Source: Naegleria gruberi (lineage: Eukaryota). Taken from it: a stretch of 64,000 nucleotides of DNA. The notes below the pieces were generated by a model. That model made no database searches. It worked only from the letters and a program-made list of their open reading frames with translations, and was not told where the DNA came from. Within the stretch, counting starts at the first letter, position 1, and each line of letters opens with the position of its first letter. Position numbers and translations under genes: made by a program. The stretch lies in NCBI GenBank assembly GCA_000004985.1, contig GG738874.1; one strand, 5' to 3'. Of this stretch, positions 2,826 to 63,845 are shown in pieces.

Positions 2826-4991
2826 ATGTTCAACCAAGAGTTTTCATTTCCAGCAAAGAAAGTACCATCATCAACTCATGAATCTCCGAGTATTGACAAT
2901 GAGCAACAGCAACCATTCGAGAAACCTGTAAGGATGGAAAAACCACCCATTCAAAATGATATTGAAGATTATGGCCTTATTGGAAATTGCCACACAGCTT
3001 GCCTTGTTGGTATGAGAGGATCCATCGATTATTGTTGCTTTCCACAATTCGATTCTCCTCCAATCTTTTCCAAACTCATTAGTAATCAACCTGCAGAGAC
3101 TTGTGGATTCTTTTCCATTCATCCAATGCGTATTGAAGATACCACGAATAAGCAACATTACTTTCCCGATTCTAATGTATTGGTCACCAAGTTCTTGTTG
3201 AGTGAAGGTGTTGGTCAATTGGTTGATTTGATGCCTATTTGGTCTGATAGTGGTGTTCATCCACAACAAACCGAAACGATGAATGAATCATCAACAAACT
3301 GCTCAACAATTGAAACTTGTTGTCCTATTACAAAACTCTTCAATTTGTATCACGGCTTCCATAGACAATTAGTGAAAACCAATAGTTCACAGTATAGAAA
3401 TTGCATTATTAGAAGGTTGGAAATTGTGCATGGAAAGATTGAGTTTCAAATTGTTTGTAAACCAATATTCAAATATGGAGCAGAGAAACCTCATGTTGAG
3501 ATATGCTCAAACAAGAAGAGTGTCGTCTTTTCATGTTCTGACCAGGCCATTATTCTTGAATCTAATAGACCATGCTTCGAAAGCATAGATGAAAAGGGAG
3601 CAGTCATTGGTTTGATTGAAATGAGTGAAATTGATCCAGAGAAGAGTTGTGTATTCTGTCTGAGATATTTAGAACAGGGAGATATGAAGGGAAATCATGA
3701 TTGTCAGACCTTATTGGATGAAATGTGCATTAATGAAGATTTGATGCTTATCACCAATGATCTCACTATTAAGACCATTAATTATTGGCAAAAGTACATT
3801 TGTAATAGTAATTACCAAGGAATTTTCAGAGAGATGGTCAATAGATCACTTCTAGCTCTCAAACTTTTAATGTTCAACGAGACAGGAGCTATAATTTCAT
3901 CTCCAACAACATCACTTCCCAAGTCAATTGGTGGTAATAGAAATTATGATTATAGATTTTGCTGGATAAGAGATGCCACCTTCTCAGTTAATGCTTTCCT
4001 CAAGACTGGAATGATTGAAGATGCTGCAAAAATTGTTGGATTTATTGAAAAGACATTTGATTCTGAAAAATCAGATTCCAAACCACTTTCCAATATTTAC
4101 ACAATTATGGGAAAGAAATTGAGCGGTTCCATTCAAGAAATCTCCAAGTTTAGTGGTTTCAAGCAAAGTATGCCTGTACGTGTTGGAAACATGGCTTCCA
4201 ATGCAATAGAATTGGATATTTATGGTGAACTGTTGGATTCAATCTATAACTTTGACATTGTCAGACCAATTTCTTACAACTTTTGGATTAAGTTGAAAGA
4301 TGTAGTTGAATTTGTAATTGAAAATTGGAGAAATCCGGATCATTCCATTTGGGAAAAGAGCAATAATAAGTGTCACTTTGTATATTCCAAAGTCATGTCA
4401 TGGTGTTGTTTGGACAGAGCATTGAGATTGGCTGATAGAAGAAGTTTCCCTGCTCCAAATGATAGATGGCTCAAAATAAGAAATGAAATCTATGAGGATG
4501 TAATGAAGAATGGATACAATGAAAAGATGAACACCTTTGTACAATCCTATGGTTCTGAAGTTCTTGATGTTTCTCTCCTTATTATGCCAATTATTGATTT
4601 TCTTCCAATTTCAGATCCAAGAATGGTCAACACTATCAATGCAATCAATAAGAAACCAAAAGAAGGTGGATTAGTTACCTCATCCCTTGTCTACAGAACC
4701 AGTGATCATCACAAGAGTGAAAAGTCAGCCACAGAGGGCACTTATAATATGCTCACTTTTTGGCTATTGAGAGTTTTGGCCATGATGAGTGATTATGACA
4801 ATAACAAGCTCAGACAAGCCCAACTCATGTTCGAACAAATATCCACCTTTAGTAATCATGTCGATCTCTATAGTGAATTGACCTCCTTTAGTGGTCTCAT
4901 GTTGGGTAATTTTATCCATTCCAATACTCATAGCTCACTCATTGTAGCAGCTGTTGAATTGGCCAAAAGAATTGACAATACAAACCTCTAA
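2826..4991 (+). CDS. Glycoside hydrolase family 15 (glucoamylase/trehalase-like) protein
   Basis: An N-terminal YGLIGNCHTACLVGMRGSIDYCCFPQFDSP block matches the GH15 N-domain. The RNYDYRFCWIRDATFSVNAF block matches the GH15 catalytic-domain hallmark YxYxWIRDxxF. The 721-aa length fits bacterial-type GH15 enzymes rather than phosphorylase-kinase subunits. Confidence 0.65.
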   Translation: MFNQEFSFPAKKVPSSTHESPSIDNEQQQPFEKPVRMEKPPIQNDIEDYGLIGNCHTACLVGMRGSIDYCCFPQFDSPPIFSKLISNQPAETCGFFSIHPMRIEDTTNKQHYFPDSNVLVTKFLLSEGVGQLVDLMPIWSDSGVHPQQTETMNESSTNCSTIETCCPITKLFNLYHGFHRQLVKTNSSQYRNCIIRRLEIVHGKIEFQIVCKPIFKYGAEKPHVEICSNKKSVVFSCSDQAIILESNRPCFESIDEKGAVIGLIEMSEIDPEKSCVFCLRYLEQGDMKGNHDCQTLLDEMCINEDLMLITNDLTIKTINYWQKYICNSNYQGIFREMVNRSLLALKLLMFNETGAIISSPTTSLPKSIGGNRNYDYRFCWIRDATFSVNAFLKTGMIEDAAKIVGFIEKTFDSEKSDSKPLSNIYTIMGKKLSGSIQEISKFSGFKQSMPVRVGNMASNAIELDIYGELLDSIYNFDIVRPISYNFWIKLKDVVEFVIENWRNPDHSIWEKSNNKCHFVYSKVMSWCCLDRALRLADRRSFPAPNDRWLKIRNEIYEDVMKNGYNEKMNTFVQSYGSEVLDVSLLIMPIIDFLPISDPRMVNTINAINKKPKEGGLVTSSLVYRTSDHHKSEKSATEGTYNMLTFWLLRVLAMMSDYDNNKLRQAQLMFEQISTFSNHVDLYSELTSFSGLMLGNFIHSNTHSSLIVAAVELAKRIDNTNL

Positions 4992-5103
4992 CTACTCTCA
5001 AAAACGATTCCCAACTCTATTGAAAATTCAAGATCTCAACATCACCAGACCTTCAAAGTTAGTTTCTAAAAAGTTGTACAATAAAAAAATCCTTAGAAAA
5101 AAA

Positions 5104-6777
5104 ATGATTAATGGAAATATTACTCTCCGTCGTCATCAGAGACATTTATTGGAGGAGGGCGTTAATTTGGTCCCTGATCCTAACTTGATGACTGTTCCAC
5201 CTGGAGGAGCTGGAGGTGAAAGTTTTAGTGAGGCAATGCCAACAATTTTATTAACCCCACCAAAGAGAGAGCCAATGCCTTTGAGAACACCTAAATCGGT
5301 ATCACCTGCATTGTCTAATGCATCAACTTCATCATTGTTTTTATCGGTGAATGCAACACCTCAGGGAAATAATTTTGCCTTTCCATCACCAAAAGGATTT
5401 AATAATTTGGATACCCCTAATAATTTGTTTTTAAGAAAACCTTCATCAGCCATGCAATCAAAGTCTGTTTTTGAGGGTCTTCCAGGATTTGTAAGTATTC
5501 CTTATTAAATTATTAGTATTTATTTATTTGGAATACAACAGAAAAAATGTAATCAAGAACAGTTTGAACATCATGCTCCAAAGGATGAAAAACAACAAAA
5601 GAAGAATCCAACTAAATATTCTGTAAGTTTGTTGTTGGATCTTTGAGACTAATTTTTATGGAATTAGAAAGATATTGAGGAGAGGTCAATTAATGCAGCC
5701 AAATCGTATAGATTTTTTGAGGATTCAATTTTGAGAAAACCTTCTTTAACTATTGGGCAATACAAGAGAAATAGCGTCCTGTATGAAGCTGATTTGAAGG
5801 ATTACAAAAGATTGAATATGGTTGCTGCCATGTCTGCATTGGAAGAAACTCCAATTGAAAAATATAATCGCTTAAAACAGGAAATTGAGGATTTTATTGG
5901 AGAAATGGGAAGAATGTCAGTGGAAAATCCAAAAGTAAAACTTGTTGGAGAAAATGTAGCAGTGTACTCTGAAATATTGGAGCAATCAAAAGAATTGAGG
6001 CAAAAGTTGGAAGTTGCAAAGGATACCAATACTTGCTGCTTTTTAGAATTGAATAACAAGGAGGATGAGTCAACAAATCAAATTCTTAGCCAAATTCAAT
6101 CCGAACTGGATAAGGCATTGGAAAATCAGTTAAATACTCTTGTTTCTCCTCAACAACAAACTCCAAAACTTCAAAAACCAAAGAAGGAAACTATTTCTCA
6201 GGACTCTTCAAGAGTGTTAAGATTGGAAAGAAGATTGGCTCACTTGGAGAAATTAGTTGGAACTGAGGATGAAAGGAGAAATGTCCTGCTTAATGATAAA
6301 AACTCCTCTGCCACTACGAAAAAGTATGCAAGTCTTGAAACAGCCATCAACATTTTGGAAAAGAAGGTCAACACAATTGATCCTTTCTTTATGCAATCGT
6401 TAGAGTCTAGAATTAAGAATATTTTGAAGGATTTGGAAAATATCTCCACTCTTGAAGTTGTAAACTCTTCATCAATAAGCTTTAATGGAACAAAAATTGA
6501 AAATTTATATCAAAGGGTCAGAAAGTGGGATGAGTTAACAAAACAAGTTCCTATGATTGTTTCAAGACTGCAAACATTGAAAATTGTTCATGATGAAGCA
6601 ATATATTTTGCAGGAACTGTCTCAAAATTGAAACAACAACAAGAGGAACTTTCTAGATTGTTGGATGGGAATGAAAAATTACTCACTAACATTTCCACTA
6701 ATTTTGATGATAATTTAGTGACTATTAATAAGAATATTAAATTAATCCAAACCAGGATTGAGAATATCAAAAAGTAA
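5104..6777 (+). CDS. DCTN2: Dynactin subunit 2 (dynamitin), three exons: join(5104..5490,5542..5622,5668..6777)
   Basis: The C-terminal region (ENLYQRVRKWDE, LKQQQEELSRLLDGNEKLLTNISTNFDDNL) matches the dynamitin coiled-coil region. The track ORF at 5731 starts at TTG. The upstream ORF (4954..5508) is in the same frame once two short introns are removed. Intron 1 (5491-5541) and intron 2 (5623-5667) both have GTAAGT donors and AG acceptors. All exon lengths are multiples of 3. The ATG at 5104 is preceded by an A-run. Confidence 0.65.
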
Positions 6778-6778
6778 T

Positions 6779-7579
6779 CTATAACATGATTACTATCAAC
6801 ATTGAAATCAATGTCATGACTGTAACAGAAATATTAATTACTGCTACGCTCGAAACTTGTGTACAAGCACTAACAGGAGTGGCACTATAATTGATTACAT
6901 CTCCGCTTTGTCCAACCAATCCTGCACTATTCTTCACACAGAAATACTTGAATTTCTTATCCAAATCAGTATTCAAGAAAAAGACACCCTGGTAAAACCA
7001 GTTGAAAGGATTGTAACCTCTGTCTCTGTTCCAACATCTATAAAGATGAGAATTTCCAAACTACAAATTACTTACGAATCAGTATATTTCATACATTCCG
7101 AATAACAGACAGGCAAGGCAGTATTATTAGAAGGATAACAGGAAGGAAAGTTTCTCAAACAAGAAAACCTTTTCCAAGATGTGGTGCAAGACTCGTCATC
7201 TGGTAAAAATTTAGAATTTTTCTTATAATTAGATAACAATGAAGCATCAACACTTGAATAATTGCTTGGTAGACAGCTATTTGTGGTGATTAGTTGATTG
7301 ATAGTATAAATATTGATTAATACTCTATTGATGTGATTAAATTATTGTAACATACACATATTCAGAGTCTGGTAAATGTTTGTAACACATGCCGAGTCCG
7401 GATTTATATTCACTTGATGCTTTGACGTCAGAAACGAGAAGACATTGACCATTGCAAGTTGATGTCGTCACTTGAGAATGAACATTTATAATCATCAATA
7501 AAAGAATCACAAAAGCAGTGAGAAGTTTGGGCACTGAAGTTAGAGAATGCAGTATCATCCTTTTTTTTTGATTTTTCAT
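6779..7579 (-). CDS. Small secreted Cys-rich protein with a possible Frizzled-type CRD-like segment and a C-terminal hydrophobic (GPI/TM-like) tail; tentative model join(7579..7356,7324..7076,7037..6779)
   Basis: The N-terminus is a signal peptide (MILHSLTSVPKLLTAFVILLLMIINVHS). The middle exon carries the spacing WKRFSCLRNFPSCYPSNNTALPVCYSEC, reminiscent of the FLCS..P.C...PPC..C core of Fz CRDs. The C-terminus is hydrophobic (VTVMTLISMLIVIML). Two very short introns of 31 and 38 nt, with GTATGT and GTAAGT donors, restore one continuous frame. The total length is a multiple of 3. Confidence 0.4.
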
Positions 7580-41672: not shown

Positions 41673-44600
41673 ATGCAAAAGCAAGAGCCTTCGCCAACGA
41701 CGGCTCCAACAAACAACCACACCGGAAAGACTTATTCCAGCTCGATCGATGATTATCATGTTTTGGAATTAATTGGTGAAGGATCATTTGGAAAAGTCTT
41801 TAAGGGAAGAAGAAAATATACAAGTCAAATTGTCGCTATGAAATTTATCCCAAAGAAGGGAAAAAACGAGAAGGAGTTATACAACCTCAGACAAGAAATT
41901 AACATTTTAAAGAAGCTTAACCATGAAAATATAATTTTATTATTGGATTCGTTTGAAACTAAAGAGGAATTTTGCGTAGTGATGGAATTTGCTCAAGGAG
42001 AGTTATTTGAAATTCTTGAGGATGATGAACGTCTTCCGGAAGATGTTGTTGGCAAGATTGCTAAACAACTCGTAAGAGCTTTACACTATCTTCACTCTAA
42101 CAGAATTATCCACAGAGGTATGTAATAATATAATTGAAGATTATATCTTATCCCATCATCTCTGTACAACAATAGATATGAAACCACAAAATATTTTGAT
42201 AGGATCAGATGGTGCCATTAAATTGTGTGATTTTGGTTTTGCCAGAGTCATGTCTTGCAATACCATGGTTCTTACTTCTATCAAGGGTACACCTTTGTAT
42301 ATGGCTCCAGAATTGGTCCAAGAACAACCATACAACCACACAGCCGATCTGTGGTCACTTGGTGTTATTCTGTACGAGTTGGTTGTTGGTAAACCTCCAT
42401 TCTTTACTAACAACTTCTTTTCTCTTATTCAATTCATTGTGAAGGATCCTGTAAAATATCCACCTTATATCAGTCCTCCAATGAAGAGTTTCCTTAGAGG
42501 ATTATTGAATAAGGCACCAAAACAAAGATTGGACTGGCCAAAATTGCTTGAACATCCATTCGTTAGGGAAACAAAAGAAGAAAAGGAACAAAGAGAAAAA
42601 CTGTTATTGGATAATATTGGTAGAAAGAGACTTGAAATGTTCGAGAAAATTGTTGCCCTTAATCAAAAGCAAGATTCAAATACAAAGAAACCAAAGCAAC
42701 CATCCAAGACTCCTAGCCAAACAAGAGTGAAGAAAAAGGTTGAACCAAAGAGAGATAGTAAGTTTTTAAGATTTTTTTGGAATACTAATACTATTGATCA
42801 ACAGTACCTTTGTCTGAGATTGAAACAGCAATTGCAAAGGATGAAAATGGACCAAAGTCAGTAATGAAGAATGTGGAATATTTGGATAAATTGGCTAATC
42901 TTATTAAGGTTACTCAAACAGCTTACAAAACAAAATCAACAAAGACTGTCCAAACATCTCTTAAAATATTATCAAAAGCATTGGAAAAGTGTGAGGAAGA
43001 GGATTCTGATAACTTGGTGGATGCTGGAATTGTCAGTAGCTTATTGGTATTTTTGAAGGAATTTGCAGGAGCTAAATTTGACACCAAACCTATAGTACTC
43101 GATGCGTTAGTATCCTTACATTTTGCTCTTCCTTACGGAATTGAAGTTCTTAATTCCACTATAACTGACTACTTTTCAGTCATACCAAGTCTGATCGATT
43201 ACAGATATGACACCACACTTGCCGTTCAAATATATACAATGAAATGCTTGAAGGAATTGGGTCTGAAAGTAAGCTCGTCCCCACTTCAAACACAACCAGC
43301 TTTTGATTCTCTAAAAGATCCACTCATTTATGAATCATTGGCCTCATGTTTAGATTACAAAGTTATCAAGACTGAGAAGAAGTTTGTTACACATCTTTCC
43401 ACCACAAGTGCAAAGGCATTGGCTGAGTTAATGCACCCAACTGATGGAGATGTTTTCCAATTCCCTTGTGTCTTCCAATCAGAAAGTTCCTCATCTACAG
43501 AAAATATTGACTGCAACCAAGATATCAACATAAGAACAGCTATTGCTAAGGCTCTAGCCAAGCAAAATATAGTGAGCAGTCTGAGTGATCTTGTAAATTC
43601 ACCTGATTACAACAGTAGAATTGGAATTTTGAAGGTACTATTCCAGTCTTGTAGATTTTTGCCAGAGTTTGCTAGACAAGTAGCTCTCGATTCTCCTCTT
43701 GTTTCTTCAATAATGTCCTTAGTCAAGGATTCAACAGATATGAAGGTAATTTACGAAACTGAGCTCTCTTGTCTCTTGCTGGCAACTATCTTCAAAGAAA
43801 CACCAAAAATAATTCCTCAATTTGGTCGAGATATTGACACAGTCATTAATACCAGTGTATCTATCATCAATACTGCTCTAGATGAAAGATATAAATGCTT
43901 TGCAATTCTCCTTTTGGCCAGACTTTCTTCCAATCCAGACTCTAAGAAGAGAGTTATTAGCGAATTAATGACGCCTGTGGGAATGTCGAAATTGAACGAT
44001 GTTCTGACTAAGGATGTAAGTTAATATTTTTTTTATATTTTTCTTATTTTATTTCAGTTCTCAGTTTATCAATGGCACGAAATTAAAAGAGTGGAAGGTT
44101 CTGGATTTGGTTTCCCTGATATTGGTTTACTGGATGGTGTTGTGTACTTGTTTAATCAAGTGTCTGACATTTGGGCTTCATCATTCAATAATTTGCTTTC
44201 CAAGACTGGTGTTTGGAGATCTCTGACTGAAAGATTGAAATCAAGCGATATTGAAATGTCTCCAGATGCTGCCTTGGCAAGTATTAAATTAATGTATGAT
44301 ATTGCCTCGGCTAATCCTGACACCATTCCAACCCTTGTGGGTGATATGAGTATTGTTAGAACTGTTATTCAATGTTTGAAAAAGAATATTGTGACTGCAT
44401 TTTCACACTGGCCTGCTTCAAGAAGTGGTGGTTCATCCTTTGTAAACATCTTTATCAACTCCTCAGTGAGCCTTCTTCACTTGTTATATAATCAAGCCAC
44501 TCTTCAAGAAAAGGAAAATGAAAAATTGTTAGCTGAACTAATTAAGGTAACACACAAGGAAGAATTAGTCAAGTATTGTATTGGAAATTTGGAATTTACT

Positions 44601-57341: not shown

Positions 57342-60300
57342 ATGAAAGGTTCCATTGTCTGTATTGTTTGTGTTGTGTTGTTGGTGTTGACGATTCAATA
57401 TGAGAACAGCTTTGCATCTCTGACATCAAAACAACAACAATTAACACTCTTTCTAGATTCGAATAGTAATTTTATAAATTCTAATTGCTTGGAATCAACA
57501 TTTCCTTGCTCTAATTTTACACAAATTATTCAAGCCACTAGGAATTTATTAAACGAAACTAACAAGCTCGATAATTTGGAAGTTTTGGTTAGAATTCGGG
57601 GGGAAATTACTACTTGTGATCATGTCATTAATTTTTCACAATTTACAACAAATTTCAAGTTGAGTTTAGTCTCATGGGATGTGAACAACCAATTCTCTAT
57701 ACCACCACGTCGGTGTGTTTTCATTGATGAAGATTCTAGTTCTATTAATGAACTCTATTTGGAAAATGGACACATAGAGATGGATTTAACAAATCGAGAA
57801 TTTGATATAGTTTCGATTGTAAACTCTACAGGTGAAATGTATTTCAATACGAAAGAATTTTCATGTGATAGTTCAACGATTAACATAATCCTCAAAAATA
57901 GTGAAAACATTCGAATTAAGAATTCGAATATCGATATTAATTGTAAAGCAGGTACTCAATTTAATGATTTTAATGTGGAAAATTCAATTCTGATTATGAG
58001 TGACTCAGAAATTTCTAATTTTAACACATTCTCTATTAGAAATTCTATTTGGAAGTTGGAAAAAGTTAGTATCATCTATACTATCCGATTGAATCTTGGA
58101 GCATACGTTTCAATAACTGATTGTGAAATTATTGGAAGCAATGCCATGTTTGAAAATATTGACGTATTGGAAATGACAAGAATCAAGTCAAGAGAACTCG
58201 ATCATTTAACAGATGAGGATAGTAGTGTCACTATCTTTACACTATTCAATATTCGCAATATTAAGGTTTCAACCAGTAATTTCACAGAAAACAAATTTGC
58301 AGGCAGCGTTTTTGATATACAAGGATGTTATCAAGTGGAATTCACTAATTGTAATTTTTACAATAATTTACAAAAAGAATTCATTAGGGTGAGAGCAGTT
58401 CAAGATACAGATCTTTCAATTAGTGATTCAAAGTTTTTTGATAATAGGGTTGCAAATGCTCTAATTAATCAGGAACCATATCAGTTATTATTATTTTACA
58501 TCACTAATTGTGAATTTATGAGAAATTATGGTGGTTCAACCGGTTCAGTATTGAATCTCTATAGAAGTGATGTATATATTGAAACGTCAAGCTTTTCACA
58601 TAATATGGCAATTAAGGGAGGAGCCATCTATGGATTGAACACTAAAACTCTAGAACTTAAAAACTCAAATTTTACAAATAATGAAGCAGATTATGGAGGT
58701 GCTATTTTTTTAGTTTACTCTCAACTCTACAAAGGAAATGCACTACATCTGATTAACAGTTTATGTGATGGAAATGTTGCAAATATTGCAGGTGGTTGTT
58801 TGTTCAGCAATGATAACTATTCAATGAAGTTAATTAAAGGAGTGAATAGAGCAGGATTTTATGGTAATACTTTGGCCTCTGGTTTGGTCGGATTGATTGT
58901 AGAATTGGAAGATAAGAATGGAAAGTATCAAACTGTTACGAATCAAACAATTAATGTGTTTCCTGGTGAATACATGAACTTTAGAATCATTTTATATGAC
59001 ATGTATTACCAGAAAACTTCAAAATTGAGAGATGGTGACTTGTTGATATCATTAGAAGAATCTCAATCATTCGTTATGCAAAGTCAAAATTTTGCAAATG
59101 GAAACGAAAGCATTCTATTGAGTAATACTCAAATTTTACTCAAGAATTCCAAACATTTTTTTAATTCCTCAACATTTTTAAGACTCAACATTCTCGGTAT
59201 GGAAAGAATAATTCATTTGAACATTGTAGAATGTCCATTAGGATATTCAATGTCAAGAAATTCTGGAACTTTTAAATGTGAAATAATTCCACTTGAAATT
59301 ATAATTCCATCAGCCATACTTGGAACAATATCCTTGATTATTATTTCGATTAGTTTGATTATTGGATCAGTTTACATTATTAGAAAATTGAAGAAATTGA
59401 GGAAACAAGAAAGAGCAGAAATGGAAATTCAGAAAAAGTTTACAGATAATAATTTCATATTTAACAATTCAAATTCTGATGTGTTATCTGAATTACATGT
59501 TCCATTGATAGAATCTTCAAAAAGCAATCAATCATCTTACCAATACACAATACCAATTTCGGATATTAACATAATTTCAAAAATAGGAGAAGGAACAAAT
59601 GGAATAGTTTATAAAGGAAAATGGCAAAGGACTGATGTAGCCATAAAACAACTGAAGACTTCAGAAGAGGATAGTGAGGAATTTGAAAGAGAAGCCATTT
59701 TAATGAGCTCATTGAGACATCCTTCAATTGTCAGTTGTTTTGGAGTCTCTCTGACACTCAATAGCAAGTATATGGTGGTAAGTTTTCTGATTTTTCGATT
59801 AAAGTTTAAAACGAATTTATAATAGGTTGAATATTTGGAAAATGGAAGTTTAGATAAAGCTCTTTATAATTCTAGAATTGGAAGAGAAAAATTACTATTC
59901 GAAACCAAGTTGAATATTCTATTCGATGTTGCCAAAGGAATGGTCTATCTTCACTCCATCAATCCTAACAAGATTATTCACAGGTGAGTTGATTGGAAAC
60001 AATTTTTATGATTAATTTCCATTTAGAGATTTAAAACCAGGAAATATTTTGCTTACCAAAAATATGAATGCAAAGGTTGGAGATTTTGGATTGAGTAAAA
60101 TAGTCTCGAATAACACTGCAACCATGACTACAAACGTTGGAACTTTGTTGTATATTGTAAGTTTAGTTTCATTATTTGAAATTTTCTAATAAGAAAAAGG
60201 CCCCTGTAAGTTAATACTATTTTGAAATTTTAAATTTAGGAATGATATTTTATGATAGGAATTATTATCAAGTTATCACAAAGGTCAAACAACAAAATTA

Positions 60301-60910
60301 GATGTTTATTCGTTTGGGGTAATCATGTGGGAAATTTTATTCGAAATAATACCATTTTCAAACGAACTTTCAGATGTGAACACTCCATTTGCAATGTGTC
60401 CACTCTTTCTTTTGATAATTATCATTGGAATACTAAATAGAATCATGACAAGACAGAGAAATGTCAAAATTGATGAAATGATTGGAGTAAATATTGAATC
60501 GGGACAGATGGTTGTGTTTGGGGTGATGGTTGGCTCGTAATTAAGGGCTCCTAATTGAAATAATAGAGGATGACATGGTGAAGTAATGTTCAACTGAGAT
60601 GTGTTGAGAAGTGACATTTTTTTTTGAATCATTTTAGTTATCTCTGTAAAATTAATGGGATCTATCCTTAAGAGATATCTCAATTGACCTCAATGTAATA
60701 GTATAAATGGATTGCCCAAATGAATTCATACAAGAAAATTTTACCAATAAGGAAATTCAAAGATTTGGAACTGAACTAATTTCAAATTGTTTGAGGGAGT
60801 ATATAGAATTGATGAAATTATGTTGGCACACCAATCCTAATGAAAGACCTGAATTTATACAAATTTCTGCAAGTTTAGAATCCATAATTGATTTGTTAAC
60901 AGGGAATTAA
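57342..60910 (+). CDS. Receptor-type Ser/Thr (TKL-like) protein kinase with a Pmp-like parallel beta-helix ectodomain. Partial model: join(57342..59777,59826..59983,60027..60156,60200..60205,60259..60375?,60752?..60910)
   Basis: The signal peptide is MKGSIVCIVCVVLLVLTIQ. The ectodomain is about 640 aa with FxxN and GGAI motifs (FTNNEADYGGAIF, FSHNMAIKGGAIYG). The TM helix is AILGTISLIIISISLIIGSVYII. The kinase core spans exons 1-3 and the microexon. Those exons read GEGTNGIVYKGKW...VAIKQLK / VEYLENGSL...IIHR / DLKPGNILL...VGDFGLSK...GTLLYI / AP / ELLSS...DVYSFGVIMWEI. The final exon carries the subdomain XI motif LMKLCWHTNPNERPEF. Introns have GTAAGT or GTGAGT donors. The last intron is only a tentative placement: donor GTGAAC, acceptor aataag, about 375 nt. 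Confidence 0.6.
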
Positions 60911-61385
60911 ACGTTATCTAAATGATTAATTATTACAACTAGAAACATCTTGTAATAGTTAACTATTATCTTATTTATTATTTACACCAATAAAATCATC
61001 AAACAGATCAACACAAGAAGAGTATTAATGAAACTATTGTTAACACAGTTACAACTTCAATTCTCTCCACAACATCATTTGAATTTGTTAATTTTTGAAA
61101 TCTAGCAGGTAATCTAATAGAGACATAATAATTTATAAATTCCAAAGCAGCATTTCTATCCAAGGAATTGATGTTTATTGATATCAAAAAGCTACGATAA
61201 TCGCAGAAATCAAGTATGAACCATCGCAAGTATTTATTCAAGACTTGATTGGGGAAGCAAATTTAAAATTGTATTCTAGTGATATCTATCAATGCTGAAT
61301 TTATGCATTTCCTAATCCTCTTTTCCGCCTTAATTCAAATATATCATTAAGTTCATCCAAGATATGAGATTTCTTAGGAAAAAAA

Positions 61386-63845
61386 ATGAAAGAACTCGAC
61401 TTTTCAAAGAGTATTTTCATCATCACGATATTATTATTATTAATTCTTCATCATTTTGAATACTATTCTAATCAAGGAGGGTTCGTGTTGGGGGCTGGTG
61501 TTGTTCGTACCCTTGTTGGTAGTATGAGAGGATTGGATAAAGTATTAGCCACTCAAACTTCTCTTAATCTTCCCTCGAGTATCACTCATGAAGATGCGAA
61601 CGGTGAATACTATATTTCAGAGTCTTACATGGGGGTGATATGGAGAGTATTCAATAATGGGACAATGGTAAGATTTGCAGGAACAGGTTTTCAAGGATAT
61701 AATGGAGATGGAAAATTGGCTTTAGAGACAGATTTGAATTATCCAGGAAGTTTAATGATGTATGATGGAGAGCTATACTTTTCCGATCTTTCCAATTATT
61801 TAGTTAGGAAGGTTGATAGGAATGGCTATGTGAGAACAGTGGCTGGTTCAATTAAATCATATGGATATGCTGACAATGTCCTTGCAAATGAAACAAATAT
61901 TTATCCCACTGGGATTTATGTTACAAAATTGGGAGAAGTTTTAATTGCTGATTCTTCCATTCACAGAATTCGAAAGGTGCTAAATAATGGAACGATAATA
62001 ACGATTGCAGGAAATGGAAAACAAGGTTATAACGGAGAAGGTTTATCTGGTTTAGATTCTGCACTTAAGGAACCATATTCTGTAGACATGGACTCTGATG
62101 GAAACATCTATTTTGCAGATAAGGGTAATTCTATAATTCGAAAAATATTAGCATCCAATGGAGCAGTGATAACAGTTGCTGGAAACGGAACTAAGGGATA
62201 TTTTGCAAATACTATTGATGCCTTGTCTTCTCAACTTGATACTCCAGTCATGGTGACTGTAGGTAAGAATGGAGAATTTTACATTGTGACTGGTAATTTA
62301 ATAAGAAAGGTTTCTAGTGATGGATTAATTTCTACTGTTGTAGGAACTGGGGCTACAGGTCCTTTTGAAGATAATATTCTAGCCGTCAATGCCACCTTGG
62401 GTATTCCTTCGGATGTGAAGATTAGCAGAAATTCAGAGTTGTTGATAGTGGATACTTTCAATTATAGAATTAGAAAAGTTCTTTTGAATGGAACGATTCA
62501 AACAATTGCAGGAAATGGATTCGACCGATTCAATGGAGACGGATTACAAGCAAAGGACACATTACTAAATAGCCCATCCTCTTTAATTGTAAACCCAGAT
62601 CAAAGCTTGTACATTGTTGAGAGAGATAATCAGAGAATTAGAAAAGTTGATCCAAACGGAATTGTGTCAACTTTTATTGGTACTGGAAAGAGAGGCTTTA
62701 ATGGTGATAGGTTGGCTTTGGACGTGCAATTGTACAATCCTACATCTATCTCTATTGATTCGAATGGAACAATTTGGTTCTCAGAGGCCAATAGCCATCG
62801 AATTCGTAAATTATTAAGCAATGGAACAGTGATAACAGTGGTTGGGTCCACCACTGGAAGTACAGCTGATGGTCCTGCATTGCAAACAAAACTCACAATT
62901 CCAAACGGCATCGGTTTTGACTTGGATGGATCTCTATTAATTGCTGACAGATATAATCACAGAATTAGAAAGTTATTAAGTAATGGGACTTTAATTACTA
63001 TTGCAGGAACAGGTGTTTCTGGAAAGGGAGGTGATGATATTCTAGCCACTAATTCCTCCTTGAATCAACCTTCTGGAGTTTGTACCATGCCAAATGGTGA
63101 CATTCTAATTGCTGATAGAGCCAATCATCAAATTCGTCGTCTGTTTGTTAATGGCACTATCAAAACAATTGCAGGAACAGGCAGTAGTGGGTATAATGGA
63201 GACGGTTTACCAGCAACAAGCTCCACACTTAATTATCCTCAAACGGTTACAATGTTTCATAATGAAATTTATATGGTTGATACTTCTAATAGTCGAATTA
63301 GAAAGATACTCAATAATGGGACAATGATTACTATTGTTGGCAATGGAATAAGAGGTGACAGTTTGGATGGATTAGATCCACTTGAATCTAAATTGAAATC
63401 ACCCTATCATGTCACCTTTGATTCTAGAGGAAGAATGTACATTTCTGATTACTCGAATCATAAAATTAAGGTTGTCGATTTCAATTCAAGCCCAGAAACC
63501 AATACAACTTTCAATAATAGAACATTACCAAGCACTGATAGTAATACTACATCTGCAATCAGTAATTCAACCTTAAACAATAATTCGACAAATTTATATA
63601 ATAGTACAGTGATTGGAAATAATAGTCTACCAAATAATGGATCTCTCATTCCATCGACTAGTAATAGTACAATAGTAACACCAACATCGAATCATTCTTT
63701 CACAAGCATACCAATTAGAAACAGTACTTTTGTTTCACAATCTCAAAAAAGTTGCATTCCAACAAAGTGGTTGGTTCTTCTTCTGTTCGTAGCATTCTTA
63801 TTGACAACAAATCCACAAGATTATGACAATAAAAATGTTGAATAA
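61386..63845 (+). CDS. Type I membrane protein with about 14 NHL repeats (beta-propeller ectodomain)
   Basis: The signal-anchor-like N-terminus is IFIITILLLLILHHF. A unit of about 55 aa is iterated ([IV]AGNG..GYNGDGL.A..A.LN.P.GV......L[IY]IAD..N.RIRK). A Ser/Thr/Asn-rich stalk and a TM helix (WLVLLLFVAFLLT) follow. Confidence 0.75.
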   Translation: MKELDFSKSIFIITILLLLILHHFEYYSNQGGFVLGAGVVRTLVGSMRGLDKVLATQTSLNLPSSITHEDANGEYYISESYMGVIWRVFNNGTMVRFAGTGFQGYNGDGKLALETDLNYPGSLMMYDGELYFSDLSNYLVRKVDRNGYVRTVAGSIKSYGYADNVLANETNIYPTGIYVTKLGEVLIADSSIHRIRKVLNNGTIITIAGNGKQGYNGEGLSGLDSALKEPYSVDMDSDGNIYFADKGNSIIRKILASNGAVITVAGNGTKGYFANTIDALSSQLDTPVMVTVGKNGEFYIVTGNLIRKVSSDGLISTVVGTGATGPFEDNILAVNATLGIPSDVKISRNSELLIVDTFNYRIRKVLLNGTIQTIAGNGFDRFNGDGLQAKDTLLNSPSSLIVNPDQSLYIVERDNQRIRKVDPNGIVSTFIGTGKRGFNGDRLALDVQLYNPTSISIDSNGTIWFSEANSHRIRKLLSNGTVITVVGSTTGSTADGPALQTKLTIPNGIGFDLDGSLLIADRYNHRIRKLLSNGTLITIAGTGVSGKGGDDILATNSSLNQPSGVCTMPNGDILIADRANHQIRRLFVNGTIKTIAGTGSSGYNGDGLPATSSTLNYPQTVTMFHNEIYMVDTSNSRIRKILNNGTMITIVGNGIRGDSLDGLDPLESKLKSPYHVTFDSRGRMYISDYSNHKIKVVDFNSSPETNTTFNNRTLPSTDSNTTSAISNSTLNNNSTNLYNSTVIGNNSLPNNGSLIPSTSNSTIVTPTSNHSFTSIPIRNSTFVSQSQKSCIPTKWLVLLLFVAFLLTTNPQDYDNKNVE

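Follow-up and report, generated by a model that had tools for sequence, protein, structure and literature searches.

Gene layout and ectodomain

The window analyzed in this study, a stretch of 64,000 nt, harbors the gene NAEGRDRAFT_68759 (EFC43316.1, UniProt D2VIQ5) of Naegleria gruberi NEG-M at positions 57342 to 60910, with its ATG at 57342 and a TAA ending at 60910. The gene and all its features described below lie on the plus strand. Six ORFs of the window match N. gruberi proteins in the range EFC43296 to EFC43310 exactly. The gene is already catalogued, without any study; a search of the literature yielded nothing relevant on the gene itself, on Pmp-kinases of this genus, or on Naegleria microexons.

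The encoded protein consists of a signal peptide, an ectodomain of ~650 amino acids, one transmembrane (TM) helix, and a TKL-like kinase of the putative Ser/Thr(/Tyr) type. A hydropathy scan revealed only two hydrophobic segments, at aa 1 to 24 (signal peptide) and aa 648 to 683 (TM). The single TM helix was assigned to aa 653 to 680 (59298 to 59381) and is followed by RKLKKLRK, so that a type I topology fits both the hydropathy and the basic stop-transfer sequence. A preliminary description of the locus had proposed a beta-helix ectodomain fused to a TM helix and a TKL-like kinase, and this architecture was supported by Pfam and TIGR scores, by an AF2 model and Foldseek, and by paralogs with the same layout. 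Judged by this predicted architecture, NAEGRDRAFT_68759 belongs to a family of type I receptor kinases in Naegleria. The combination of a Pmp-type beta-helix with a receptor kinase was described in no paper found in our literature search.

The Pmp-type repeats form a cluster at aa 314 to 488 (58281 to 58805), supported by motif positions and spacing, TIGR01376, Pfam Chlam_PMP, and homolog matches. FxxN occurs six times, at aa 314, 339, 365, 392, 418, and 444, with a spacing of 25 to 27 aa, and the GG motifs are GGST (397), GGAI (426), GGAI (452), and GGCL (484). The motifs quoted in the preliminary description were all recovered, namely, FYNN at aa 339, FMRNYGG at aa 392, FSHNMAIKGGAIYG at aa 418, and FTNNEADYGGAIF at aa 444. 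FxxN followed by GG was observed twice, versus 0.08 expected from shuffles (P = 0.004). The profile scores were mixed: NCBIfam TIGR01376 (POMP_repeat) matched aa 417 to 437 with 15.7 bits (E = 0.0095), a marginal pass of its cutoff of 15, whereas Pfam PF02415 (Chlam_PMP) reached 12.9 bits (E = 0.15), which is below its gathering cutoff of 20.6. Two paralogs lie above the Pfam cutoff, P0236 with 21.4 and an open reading frame (ORF) of locus L003 with 22.2. Support for a Pmp-type beta-helix in the NEG-M copy is thus genuine, yet marginal. Pmp-type (GGAI/FxxN) rungs would make up part of a predicted right-handed beta-helix.

An exhaustive search for ectodomain homologs yielded 1,864 matches, concentrated on aa 300 to 510. 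Nearly all of 115 ectodomain homologs bear PF02415 and/or PF13229, the latter being precomputed on most of them. Among proteins matching the repeats, the best are beta-helix proteins from metagenomes, methanogenic archaea, or bacteria and not chlamydial ones, and a Pfam scan (E ≤ 1) detected neither an autotransporter beta-barrel nor a PMP middle domain in the protein. The word "chlamydial" in the earlier label is therefore imprecise.

The AF2 model contains a confidently modelled beta-helix core at aa ~200 to 500 (57939 to 58841). At aa ~200 to 490, the mean pLDDT of 10-residue blocks is ~57 to 96, mostly above 70, with regular short strands arranged in three-strand rungs; outside this region the model is poor. 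Foldseek matches of the model in the PDB are weak (best E = 9e-4; TM ≤ 0.51 on the target), and nearly all of them are right-handed parallel beta-helices. Close to the membrane, a Cys-Pro-x-Gly-[YF]...Cys motif (ECPLGYSMSRNSGTFKC, 59229 to 59279) is conserved in L003, P0236, and P0124 of Naegleria lovaniensis.

Kinase domain and exon-intron structure

Exon 1 (57342 to 59777) is an ORF that ends at a GTAAGT donor at 59778 and encodes the signal peptide, ectodomain, TM helix, juxtamembrane region, and kinase N-lobe up to KYMV. It is followed by intron 1 (59778 to 59825; 48 nt, GTAAGT...TAG), whose position is shared with paralog L005, exon 2 (59826 to 59983), intron 2 (59984 to 60026; 43 nt, GTGAGT...TAG), exon 3 (60027 to 60156; DLKPGN...GTLLYI), and intron 3 (60157 to 60199; 43 nt). 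Downstream of intron 3 we found a 6-nt microexon, GCCCCT (60200 to 60205), preceded by AG and followed by GTAAGT; its two codons specify Ala-Pro in the APE motif. The Joint Genome Institute (JGI) model places the acceptor at a different AG, 60192-60193, which results in KKAP. In paralog L005, GCACCT occupies the same setting, and a 5-nt microexon is present in addition. The exon list of the preliminary description lacked nothing essential, except that it had not set the Ala-Pro codons apart as a separate microexon. Intron 4 (60206 to 60258; 53 nt), located downstream of the microexon, is common to L004. The nine verified introns of the family are all 40 to 53 nt long and have GTRAGT donors.

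The intact part of the kinase, from GxGxxG through alphaF to NTPFA, is encoded by exons 1 to 5 (59568 to 60395) and matches PF07714 and PF00069. The kinase assignment held up in the profile search (PF07714, E = 1e-54), and all catalytic motifs are found: GEGTNG, VAIK, EFEREA, HRDLKPGN, DFG, and IAPE. The score of PF07714 exceeds that of PF00069, and outside the Heterolobosea the best named matches are the plant kinases CTR1, HT1, ILK, and RLK-Pelle. By these scores and matches, the domain may belong to the TKL group.

The last exon and its 323-nt segment

We compared the gene with a syntenic sister allele (contigs L001 and L006) from metagenome ERR1078381, which is 97 to 99% identical to it; L006 and L007 are two independent assemblies of this run. 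Exon 1 shares 99% identity with L001, with 12 synonymous and 5 nonsynonymous differences and a dN/dS of ~0.11, a ratio that shows the signature of purifying selection. Since L001 has an indel in an A-run just before the ATG, the frame upstream of it is noncoding. Positions 59862 to 60395 of the window align with L006 1 to 534 at 99.3% identity (blastn), and all four differences are intronic, at 60010 (intron 2), 60195 (intron 3), and 60223 and 60232 (intron 4); exon 2 is 100% identical to L006. The last exon of the sister gene (P0380, on L006 and L007) is uninterrupted, and the same NHL-repeat gene lies downstream. A related-locus search in JGI metagenomes found no relatives of P0380.

In the NEG-M copy, the ancestral last exon is represented by two conserved parts. 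Its 5' part (60259 to 60395; ELLSS...DVYSFGVIMWEI...SDVNTPFA) matches L006 and L007 with 100% identity. Its 3' part (60719 to 60910; NEFIQENFTNKEIQRFG...LMKLCWHTNPNERPEF...TGN and the stop) aligns with L006 from position 602 onward, with a single difference in 192 nt (I to L), and its product corresponds in alignments to alphaH-alphaI of every family member. Between them, a blastn comparison of the window with L006 and L007, and an alignment, placed a segment of 323 nt (60396 to 60718) where the sister allele has 67 coding nt (ILLKVITGYRPSLSLIGDNFENI). The comparison shows that the ancestral single last exon of the NEG-M copy was hit by a substitution of 323 nt for 67 nt. The lost 67 nt encode the alphaG G-x-R-P block, which is invariant in eight of eight relatives; paralog L005 and the sister allele both have an uninterrupted last exon with this block, in contrast to the NEG-M copy. 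Since all other exons are intact and identical or nearly so to those of the wild allele, and since purifying selection acted on exon 1, the lesion appears to be recent.

The 323-nt segment has stops in all three forward frames; on its minus strand there is an open frame of 96 codons that includes a TM-like stretch. Read-through from the 5' part terminates at 60538-60540, where the JGI model ends; the EFC43316.1 product has 1,005 aa and ends in VNIESGQMVVFGVMVGS. The in-frame TAA reported earlier ahead of the last ORF (60707 to 60910) is indeed present at 60704-60706 and blocks the downstream frame. A complete C-lobe (alphaF to alphaI) is present in one frame in the sister allele; in NEG-M no continuous frame encodes it, and no GT-AG pair restores the G-x-R-P block. 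Several in-frame GT-AG pairs span the segment, but none of the candidate donors matches GTRAGT. Because generic Pfam kinase scores are similar for all 3' variants and do not separate the models, we built a family-specific C-lobe hidden Markov model (HMM). With this profile the sister allele scored 102.1 bits, any GT-AG rescue 76.6 to 79.1 bits, and the read-through product 38.4 bits.

The preliminary description had completed the C-lobe by a 376-nt intron from a GTGAAC donor at 60376 to an AAG acceptor ending at 60751. Both sites exist, the frame is kept, and the product scores 190.4 bits with the Pfam kinase model. However, homologous coding sequence runs 20 nt beyond this donor, to 60395, and restarts 33 nt before the acceptor, at 60719. 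These two stretches, 60376 to 60395 (VNTPFA) and 60719 to 60751 (NEFIQENFTNK), are 100% conserved in the sister allele, which reads through both in one last exon, so that both are coding. The intron would also remove ~40 residues, the entire alphaG block among them (76.6 versus 102.1 bits with the family HMM), and its donor differs from the GTRAGT of every verified intron. We therefore regard a functional C-lobe produced by this splicing as very improbable; a continuous last exon in a syntenic allele that is 97 to 99% identical leaves the proposed intron unsupported.

A different possibility is that the 323-nt segment, together with a little of its flanks, is removed as a new intron by cryptic GT-AG sites, the best-looking pair being GTAAAT at 60487 and an AG whose last base is 60751 (phase 0, 265 nt). 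A full-length kinase would then be made, with 31 new residues (MCPLFLLIIIIGILNRIMTRQRNVKIDEMIG) instead of 34 ancestral ones. This splicing keeps the frame and almost the length, leaves the Pfam kinase score unchanged (188.1 versus 188.3 bits), and joins exons that are otherwise all intact. Nevertheless, we consider it unlikely: the donor has no G at +5, a base invariant among the nine verified introns of the family, the new intron would have five times the length of any of these, 33 nt of perfectly conserved ancestral coding sequence (60719 to 60751) would be discarded, and the product lacks the G-x-R-P block invariant in eight of eight relatives and scores 23 bits lower with the family profile. 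A relative in N. lovaniensis, inspected for a C-lobe intron, needs two 1-nt frameshifts instead.

Alternatively, the segment could be an assembly artefact or belong to one of two alleles, with the true NEG-M genome also containing the intact 67-nt version. The intact form occurs in both L006 and L007, and exact look-ups of NEG-M-specific ORFs gave nothing, as would fit this explanation. On the other hand, an internal patch of 323 nt with collinear flanks on both sides is unlike the usual signature of a chimeric clone or a polishing error. Moreover, indels and unalignable stretches also separate the window from L006 and L007 in the adjacent intergenic region, and the structural divergence between the two genomes is therefore real. 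We give an artefact or a second allele a low probability.

Several possible sources of the segment were rejected. DNA and peptide shuffling tests revealed no significant similarity to the 67 nt it replaced: the read-through peptide (LIIIIGILNRIMTRQ..., MIGVNIES) was dismissed as a G-x-R-P homolog since 55% of shuffles score equally, and resemblances in other frames (KINGIYP, YKW) were not significant either. Gene conversion from a diverged paralog was dropped on the basis of these shuffles; within the window there is no paralog that could have served as donor, the only other kinase being a remote one at 41733 to 42402. No second copy of the segment was detected in the window or any compared locus, excluding a tandem duplication or repeat element, and a noncoding RNA was rejected as Rfam gave no match. 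A foreign or viral origin was rejected because exact 24- to 26-mers of the segment are absent from JGI metagenomes, GTDB genomes, and IMG/VR. A U12-type intron was discarded as well: a branch-like word, TCCTTAAG, occurs at ~60668, but there is no /RTATCCTT donor.

We thus favor, as the probable explanation overall, a receptor kinase of the architecture described above whose 3' end carries a lesion that leaves NEG-M with a truncated kinase. Read-through to 60538-60540, as in the JGI model, would most likely yield a receptor with a truncated, inactive kinase and make the NEG-M allele a decoy receptor or a pseudogene of very recent origin. Of the earlier suggestions on the 3' end, the fallback that the gene may be partly degenerate is the best supported, given the substitution that removed 67 coding nt.

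Relatives and possible function

Paralogs L005 (P0236) and L003 and a locus of N. lovaniensis have the same architecture as the window gene, as does the sister allele, and the microexon is shared by L005 and the sister allele. Like chlamydial Pmps (PF02415/TIGR01376), the window protein alternates FxxN and GGA[ILV] with a period of ~25 aa and is predicted to display a right-handed parallel beta-helix at the cell surface. In contrast to them, it lacks the autotransporter barrel and PMP middle domain, has only ~4 to 6 recognisable rungs, and combines a eukaryotic signal peptide and a single TM helix with a cytoplasmic kinase. Pmp-like surface proteins of Trichomonas vaginalis are eukaryotic, membrane-anchored proteins with Pmp-type repeats; their cytoplasmic tails are short, and they are not known to carry a kinase domain.

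A predicted type I topology and a TKL-like kinase are shared with single-pass TM kinases of protists and plants, such as the Entamoeba TMKs, amoebozoan and oomycete TMK clades, plant RLK/Pelle, and CTR1-like TKL kinases, in which a lineage-specific ectodomain is likewise recombined onto a conserved kinase. The Naegleria ectodomain differs in being a predicted Pmp-type beta-helix and not of the LRR, CXXC-rich, malectin, or GPCR type, and the Naegleria family differs further by an insert of 30 to 40 aa between the G-x-R-P block and alphaH. A survey of single-pass TM kinases in protists and plants makes no mention of Naegleria, Pmp, or beta-helix ectodomains (PMC10463195).

In intact members, the beta-helix may bind a ligand outside the cell, with a glycan or a cell-surface polymer as the most plausible candidate by analogy with other beta-helix proteins, and ligand-driven clustering would then activate the cytoplasmic kinase; fold and topology are the basis for this inferred mode. 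A Naegleria-wide family of receptor kinases with a Pmp-type beta-helix sensor would give a free-living amoeba a receptor of a new type and, if its intact members bind glycans, provide candidate prey or environment sensors of a bacterivorous amoeboflagellate. The genus also includes the pathogen Naegleria fowleri. A bolder reading goes further: the 323-nt patch would be a spliceosomal intron at birth, arisen when DNA repair inserted it into the last exon of a selected gene and spliced at cryptic GTAAAT...AG sites into a working kinase with a rewritten alphaG, and Naegleria would sense prey or environmental glycans by a family of prokaryote-derived Pmp beta-helix receptor kinases, encoded by genes with microexons of 5 and 6 nt. 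As a whole, we consider this combination quite improbable.

The axenic laboratory strain NEG-M thus carries a disrupted allele that is intact in a wild relative, which is relevant wherever NEG-M serves as the wild-type reference. Annotation of the family is systematically wrong, with partial or split models, a 6-nt microexon that is missed or miscalled, and a read-through tail on the reference model; censuses of the Naegleria kinome and receptors are therefore probably too low.

Gene structure and identity

A single gene on the plus strand spans positions 57342 to 60910 of the window. Exon 1 (57342 to 59777) is followed by intron 1 (59778 to 59825, 48 nt, donor GTAAGT), exon 2 (59826 to 59983), intron 2 (59984 to 60026, 43 nt, donor GTGAGT), exon 3 (60027 to 60156), intron 3 (60157 to 60199, 43 nt), a 6-nt microexon, GCCCCT (60200 to 60205), for Ala-Pro of the kinase APE motif, intron 4 (60206 to 60258, 53 nt), and a last exon beginning at 60259; this structure was established up to 60395. 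The start codon is secure because an A-run indel lies directly upstream of the ATG in a 99% identical contig. The locus is already in databases, since the gene corresponds to EFC43316.1 (XP_002676060.1, NAEGRDRAFT_68759, UniProt D2VIQ5), annotated as a "predicted protein" of 1005 aa. Six ORFs of the window match N. gruberi NEG-M proteins EFC43296 to EFC43310, located on a scaffold of 401,612 bp, exactly, and the NHL-repeat gene downstream is EFC43317.1. A literature search found no paper mentioning NAEGRDRAFT_68759.

The APE microexon recurs as GCACCT (3320 to 3325) in the paralogous metagenome locus L005, with a 5-nt microexon, ATATT (3275 to 3279), just upstream. In JGI model EFC43316.1 the window's microexon is instead called at 12 nt, adding KK to the APE motif, and the sole nearby difference in the sister allele of a close relative (60195) falls within the extra 6 nt. 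A second kinase gene in the window (41733 to 42402) is only a remote relative (28 to 40% identity to the NAEGRDRAFT_68759 kinase in tblastn).

A receptor-kinase family with a predicted beta-helix ectodomain

The strongly hydrophobic stretches of the protein are only aa 1 to 24 (signal peptide) and aa 648 to 683 (transmembrane helix, then RKLKKLRK), which argues for a type I topology. The repeat motifs reported from initial inspection are real: six FxxN motifs are spaced 25 to 27 aa apart at aa 314 to 444, and two GGAI motifs are accompanied by two degenerate GG motifs. Profile support of the NEG-M copy for a Pmp repeat is marginal; TIGR01376 barely exceeded its cut-off (15.7 versus 15 bits), but Pfam Chlam_PMP stayed below it (12.9 versus 20.6 bits), a threshold passed by two paralogs sharing the overall architecture. 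Judged by its homologs, the relationship of the ectodomain to Pmp/beta-helix proteins is nevertheless solid. PF02415 and/or PF13229 was found on nearly all of 115 word-indexed ectodomain homologs, and an exhaustive search gave 1864 matches clustered on aa ~300 to 510. Overall, the AlphaFold2 model has a poor pLDDT of 61; at aa ~200 to 490, where mean pLDDT of 10-residue blocks is ~57 to 96 and mostly >70, it shows regular three-strand rungs. Right-handed beta-helices make up nearly all of its PDB neighbors (among them AlgG, phage tailspikes, polygalacturonases, pertactin, and Hbp), at weak scores. The proposed Pmp-type beta-helix joined to a transmembrane helix and a kinase is supported, with marginal support in the NEG-M copy itself. 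The label "chlamydial" is a misnomer, as the named relatives belong to methanogens or bacteria and a domain profile scan found no autotransporter barrel.

Architecture and family were also evident from related loci. P0236, the L005 protein from the metagenome that yielded the sister allele, shows 33% identity across the whole ectodomain, and L005 splices into a complete 1048-aa receptor kinase via its consecutive 5- and 6-nt microexons. L003 carries Pmp rungs, transmembrane helix, and kinase; its first 45 nt are an adapter-like artefact, translating as PPRSTLFPYTTLFRS, ahead of the real ectodomain sequence. L002 and L004 are additional members, the latter sharing the intron directly after the Ala-Pro codons. 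The N. lovaniensis locus L008 (PYSW02000036.1) has the same layout divided among several gene models; positions 3775 to 6900 are annotated as separate hypothetical proteins, the beta-helix part followed by C9374_008807. Two 1-nt frame shifts, one within a T-run, are needed to read the C-lobe of this locus; they reflect assembly errors or else a further copy in decay. The best named kinase matches are from N. lovaniensis, N. fowleri, N. gruberi (annotated "partial"), and Acrasis kona, followed by plant TKL kinases. A survey of protist transmembrane kinases mentions neither Naegleria nor Pmp ectodomains. Intact members may act as type I receptor kinases clustered by ligand, and their beta-helix might bind a glycan-like one.

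Replacement of 67 coding nucleotides by a 323-nt patch

Using the two orphan 3' ORFs of the window as queries, we retrieved P0380, a 109-aa protein on L006 and L007 of metagenome run ERR1078381. L006 is syntenic with the window (97 to 99% identity; NHL gene next downstream in both), and L001 is 99% identical over exon 1; together the two contigs represent this gene as carried by a close wild relative. The NHL-repeat neighbor (61386 to 63845) is 97.4% identical there (819 versus 825 aa); in the intergenic region, 60911 to 61041 aligns with gaps of 31 nt in total, and 61042 to 61067 (26 nt) is unalignable with L006 894 to 1019 (126 nt).

The last exon of the sister allele is uninterrupted (...SDVNTPFA-ILLKVITGYRPSLSLIGDNFENI-NEFIQENFTNKEIQRFG...LMKLCW...RPEF...TGN*). 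In blastn, L006 1 to 534 is 99.3% identical to window 59862 to 60395 and alignment resumes at L006 602 and window 60719; the intervening segments, 67 nt (535 to 601) versus 323 nt (60396 to 60718), are not significantly similar in DNA or in protein. The alignment shows this substitution in the NEG-M reference copy. Each of the three forward frames of the patch contains stops. The TAA previously noted ahead of the final ORF is present at 60704 to 60706 in the downstream frame, and the next AG does not occur before 60733; therefore, no canonical acceptor brings NEFIQ... into the mRNA. The JGI model runs through to TAA 60538 to 60540, ending ...GVMVGS, a kinase without alphaG-alphaI.

Splicing, decay, and origin of the patch

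With a C-lobe HMM built on eight relatives, leaving out the sister allele, the latter scored 102.1 bits and read-through 38.4 bits. A neo-intron removing the patch via cryptic sites is rather unlikely: its best pair, GTAAAT 60487 to AG 60751, scored 79.1 bits, and GT 60396 to AG 60762 gave 76.8 bits. The intron of the preliminary description (GTGAAC 60376 to AAG 60751) is highly improbable, as it reached 76.6 bits and would discard 20 nt plus 33 nt of coding sequence that are 100% conserved in the relative. The loss of ~23 bits is the G-x-R-P-x-I block, invariant in 8/8 relatives; a generic Pfam kinase model did not tell the 3' variants apart. All nine verified family introns are 40 to 53 nt long with GTRAGT donors, which none of the rescue donors fits, and no canonical route restores the conserved block. 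As a U12-type candidate, TCCTTAAG (~60668 to 60675) resembles a branch site; it has no U12 donor upstream and was rejected.

Exon 1 differs from L001 by 12 synonymous and 5 nonsynonymous changes (ratio ~0.11). Only four differences from L006, all in introns and none in exons, occur in 59862 to 60395, and one site differs in the 192 nt 3' of the patch. The low ratio and this near-identity on either side show that the gene was evolving under purifying selection up to a very recent time, and its sole lesion is the patch. An assembly or heterozygosity issue behind the patch is decidedly unlikely. With 323 nt containing stops in place of 67 coding nucleotides, the earlier fallback of a partly degenerate gene is supported, and the NEG-M allele probably encodes a truncated, catalytically dead receptor or is a young pseudogene. 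NEG-M has long been kept as an axenic laboratory strain; loss of an environmental receptor, speculatively, would be unsurprising. The observation as a whole was confirmed, and the gene is an uncharacterised variant among protist receptor kinases; its genome is known, its lesion is strain-specific, and its microexon is conserved.

No second copy of the patch was found in the window or any compared locus, nor were terminal repeats or an Rfam family; its exact 24- to 26-mers are absent from JGI metagenomes, GTDB genomes, and IMG/VR. At 33%, the GC content of the patch is above that of the flanks (27 to 28%). The minus strand (60396 to 60683) is open for 96 codons, and its peptide, for which no homolog was found, resembles an N-glycosylated ectodomain (four NxS/T sites) with a TM-like stretch and then KRK. 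This frame may represent a captured fragment of a gene, or may have arisen by chance in AT-rich DNA.
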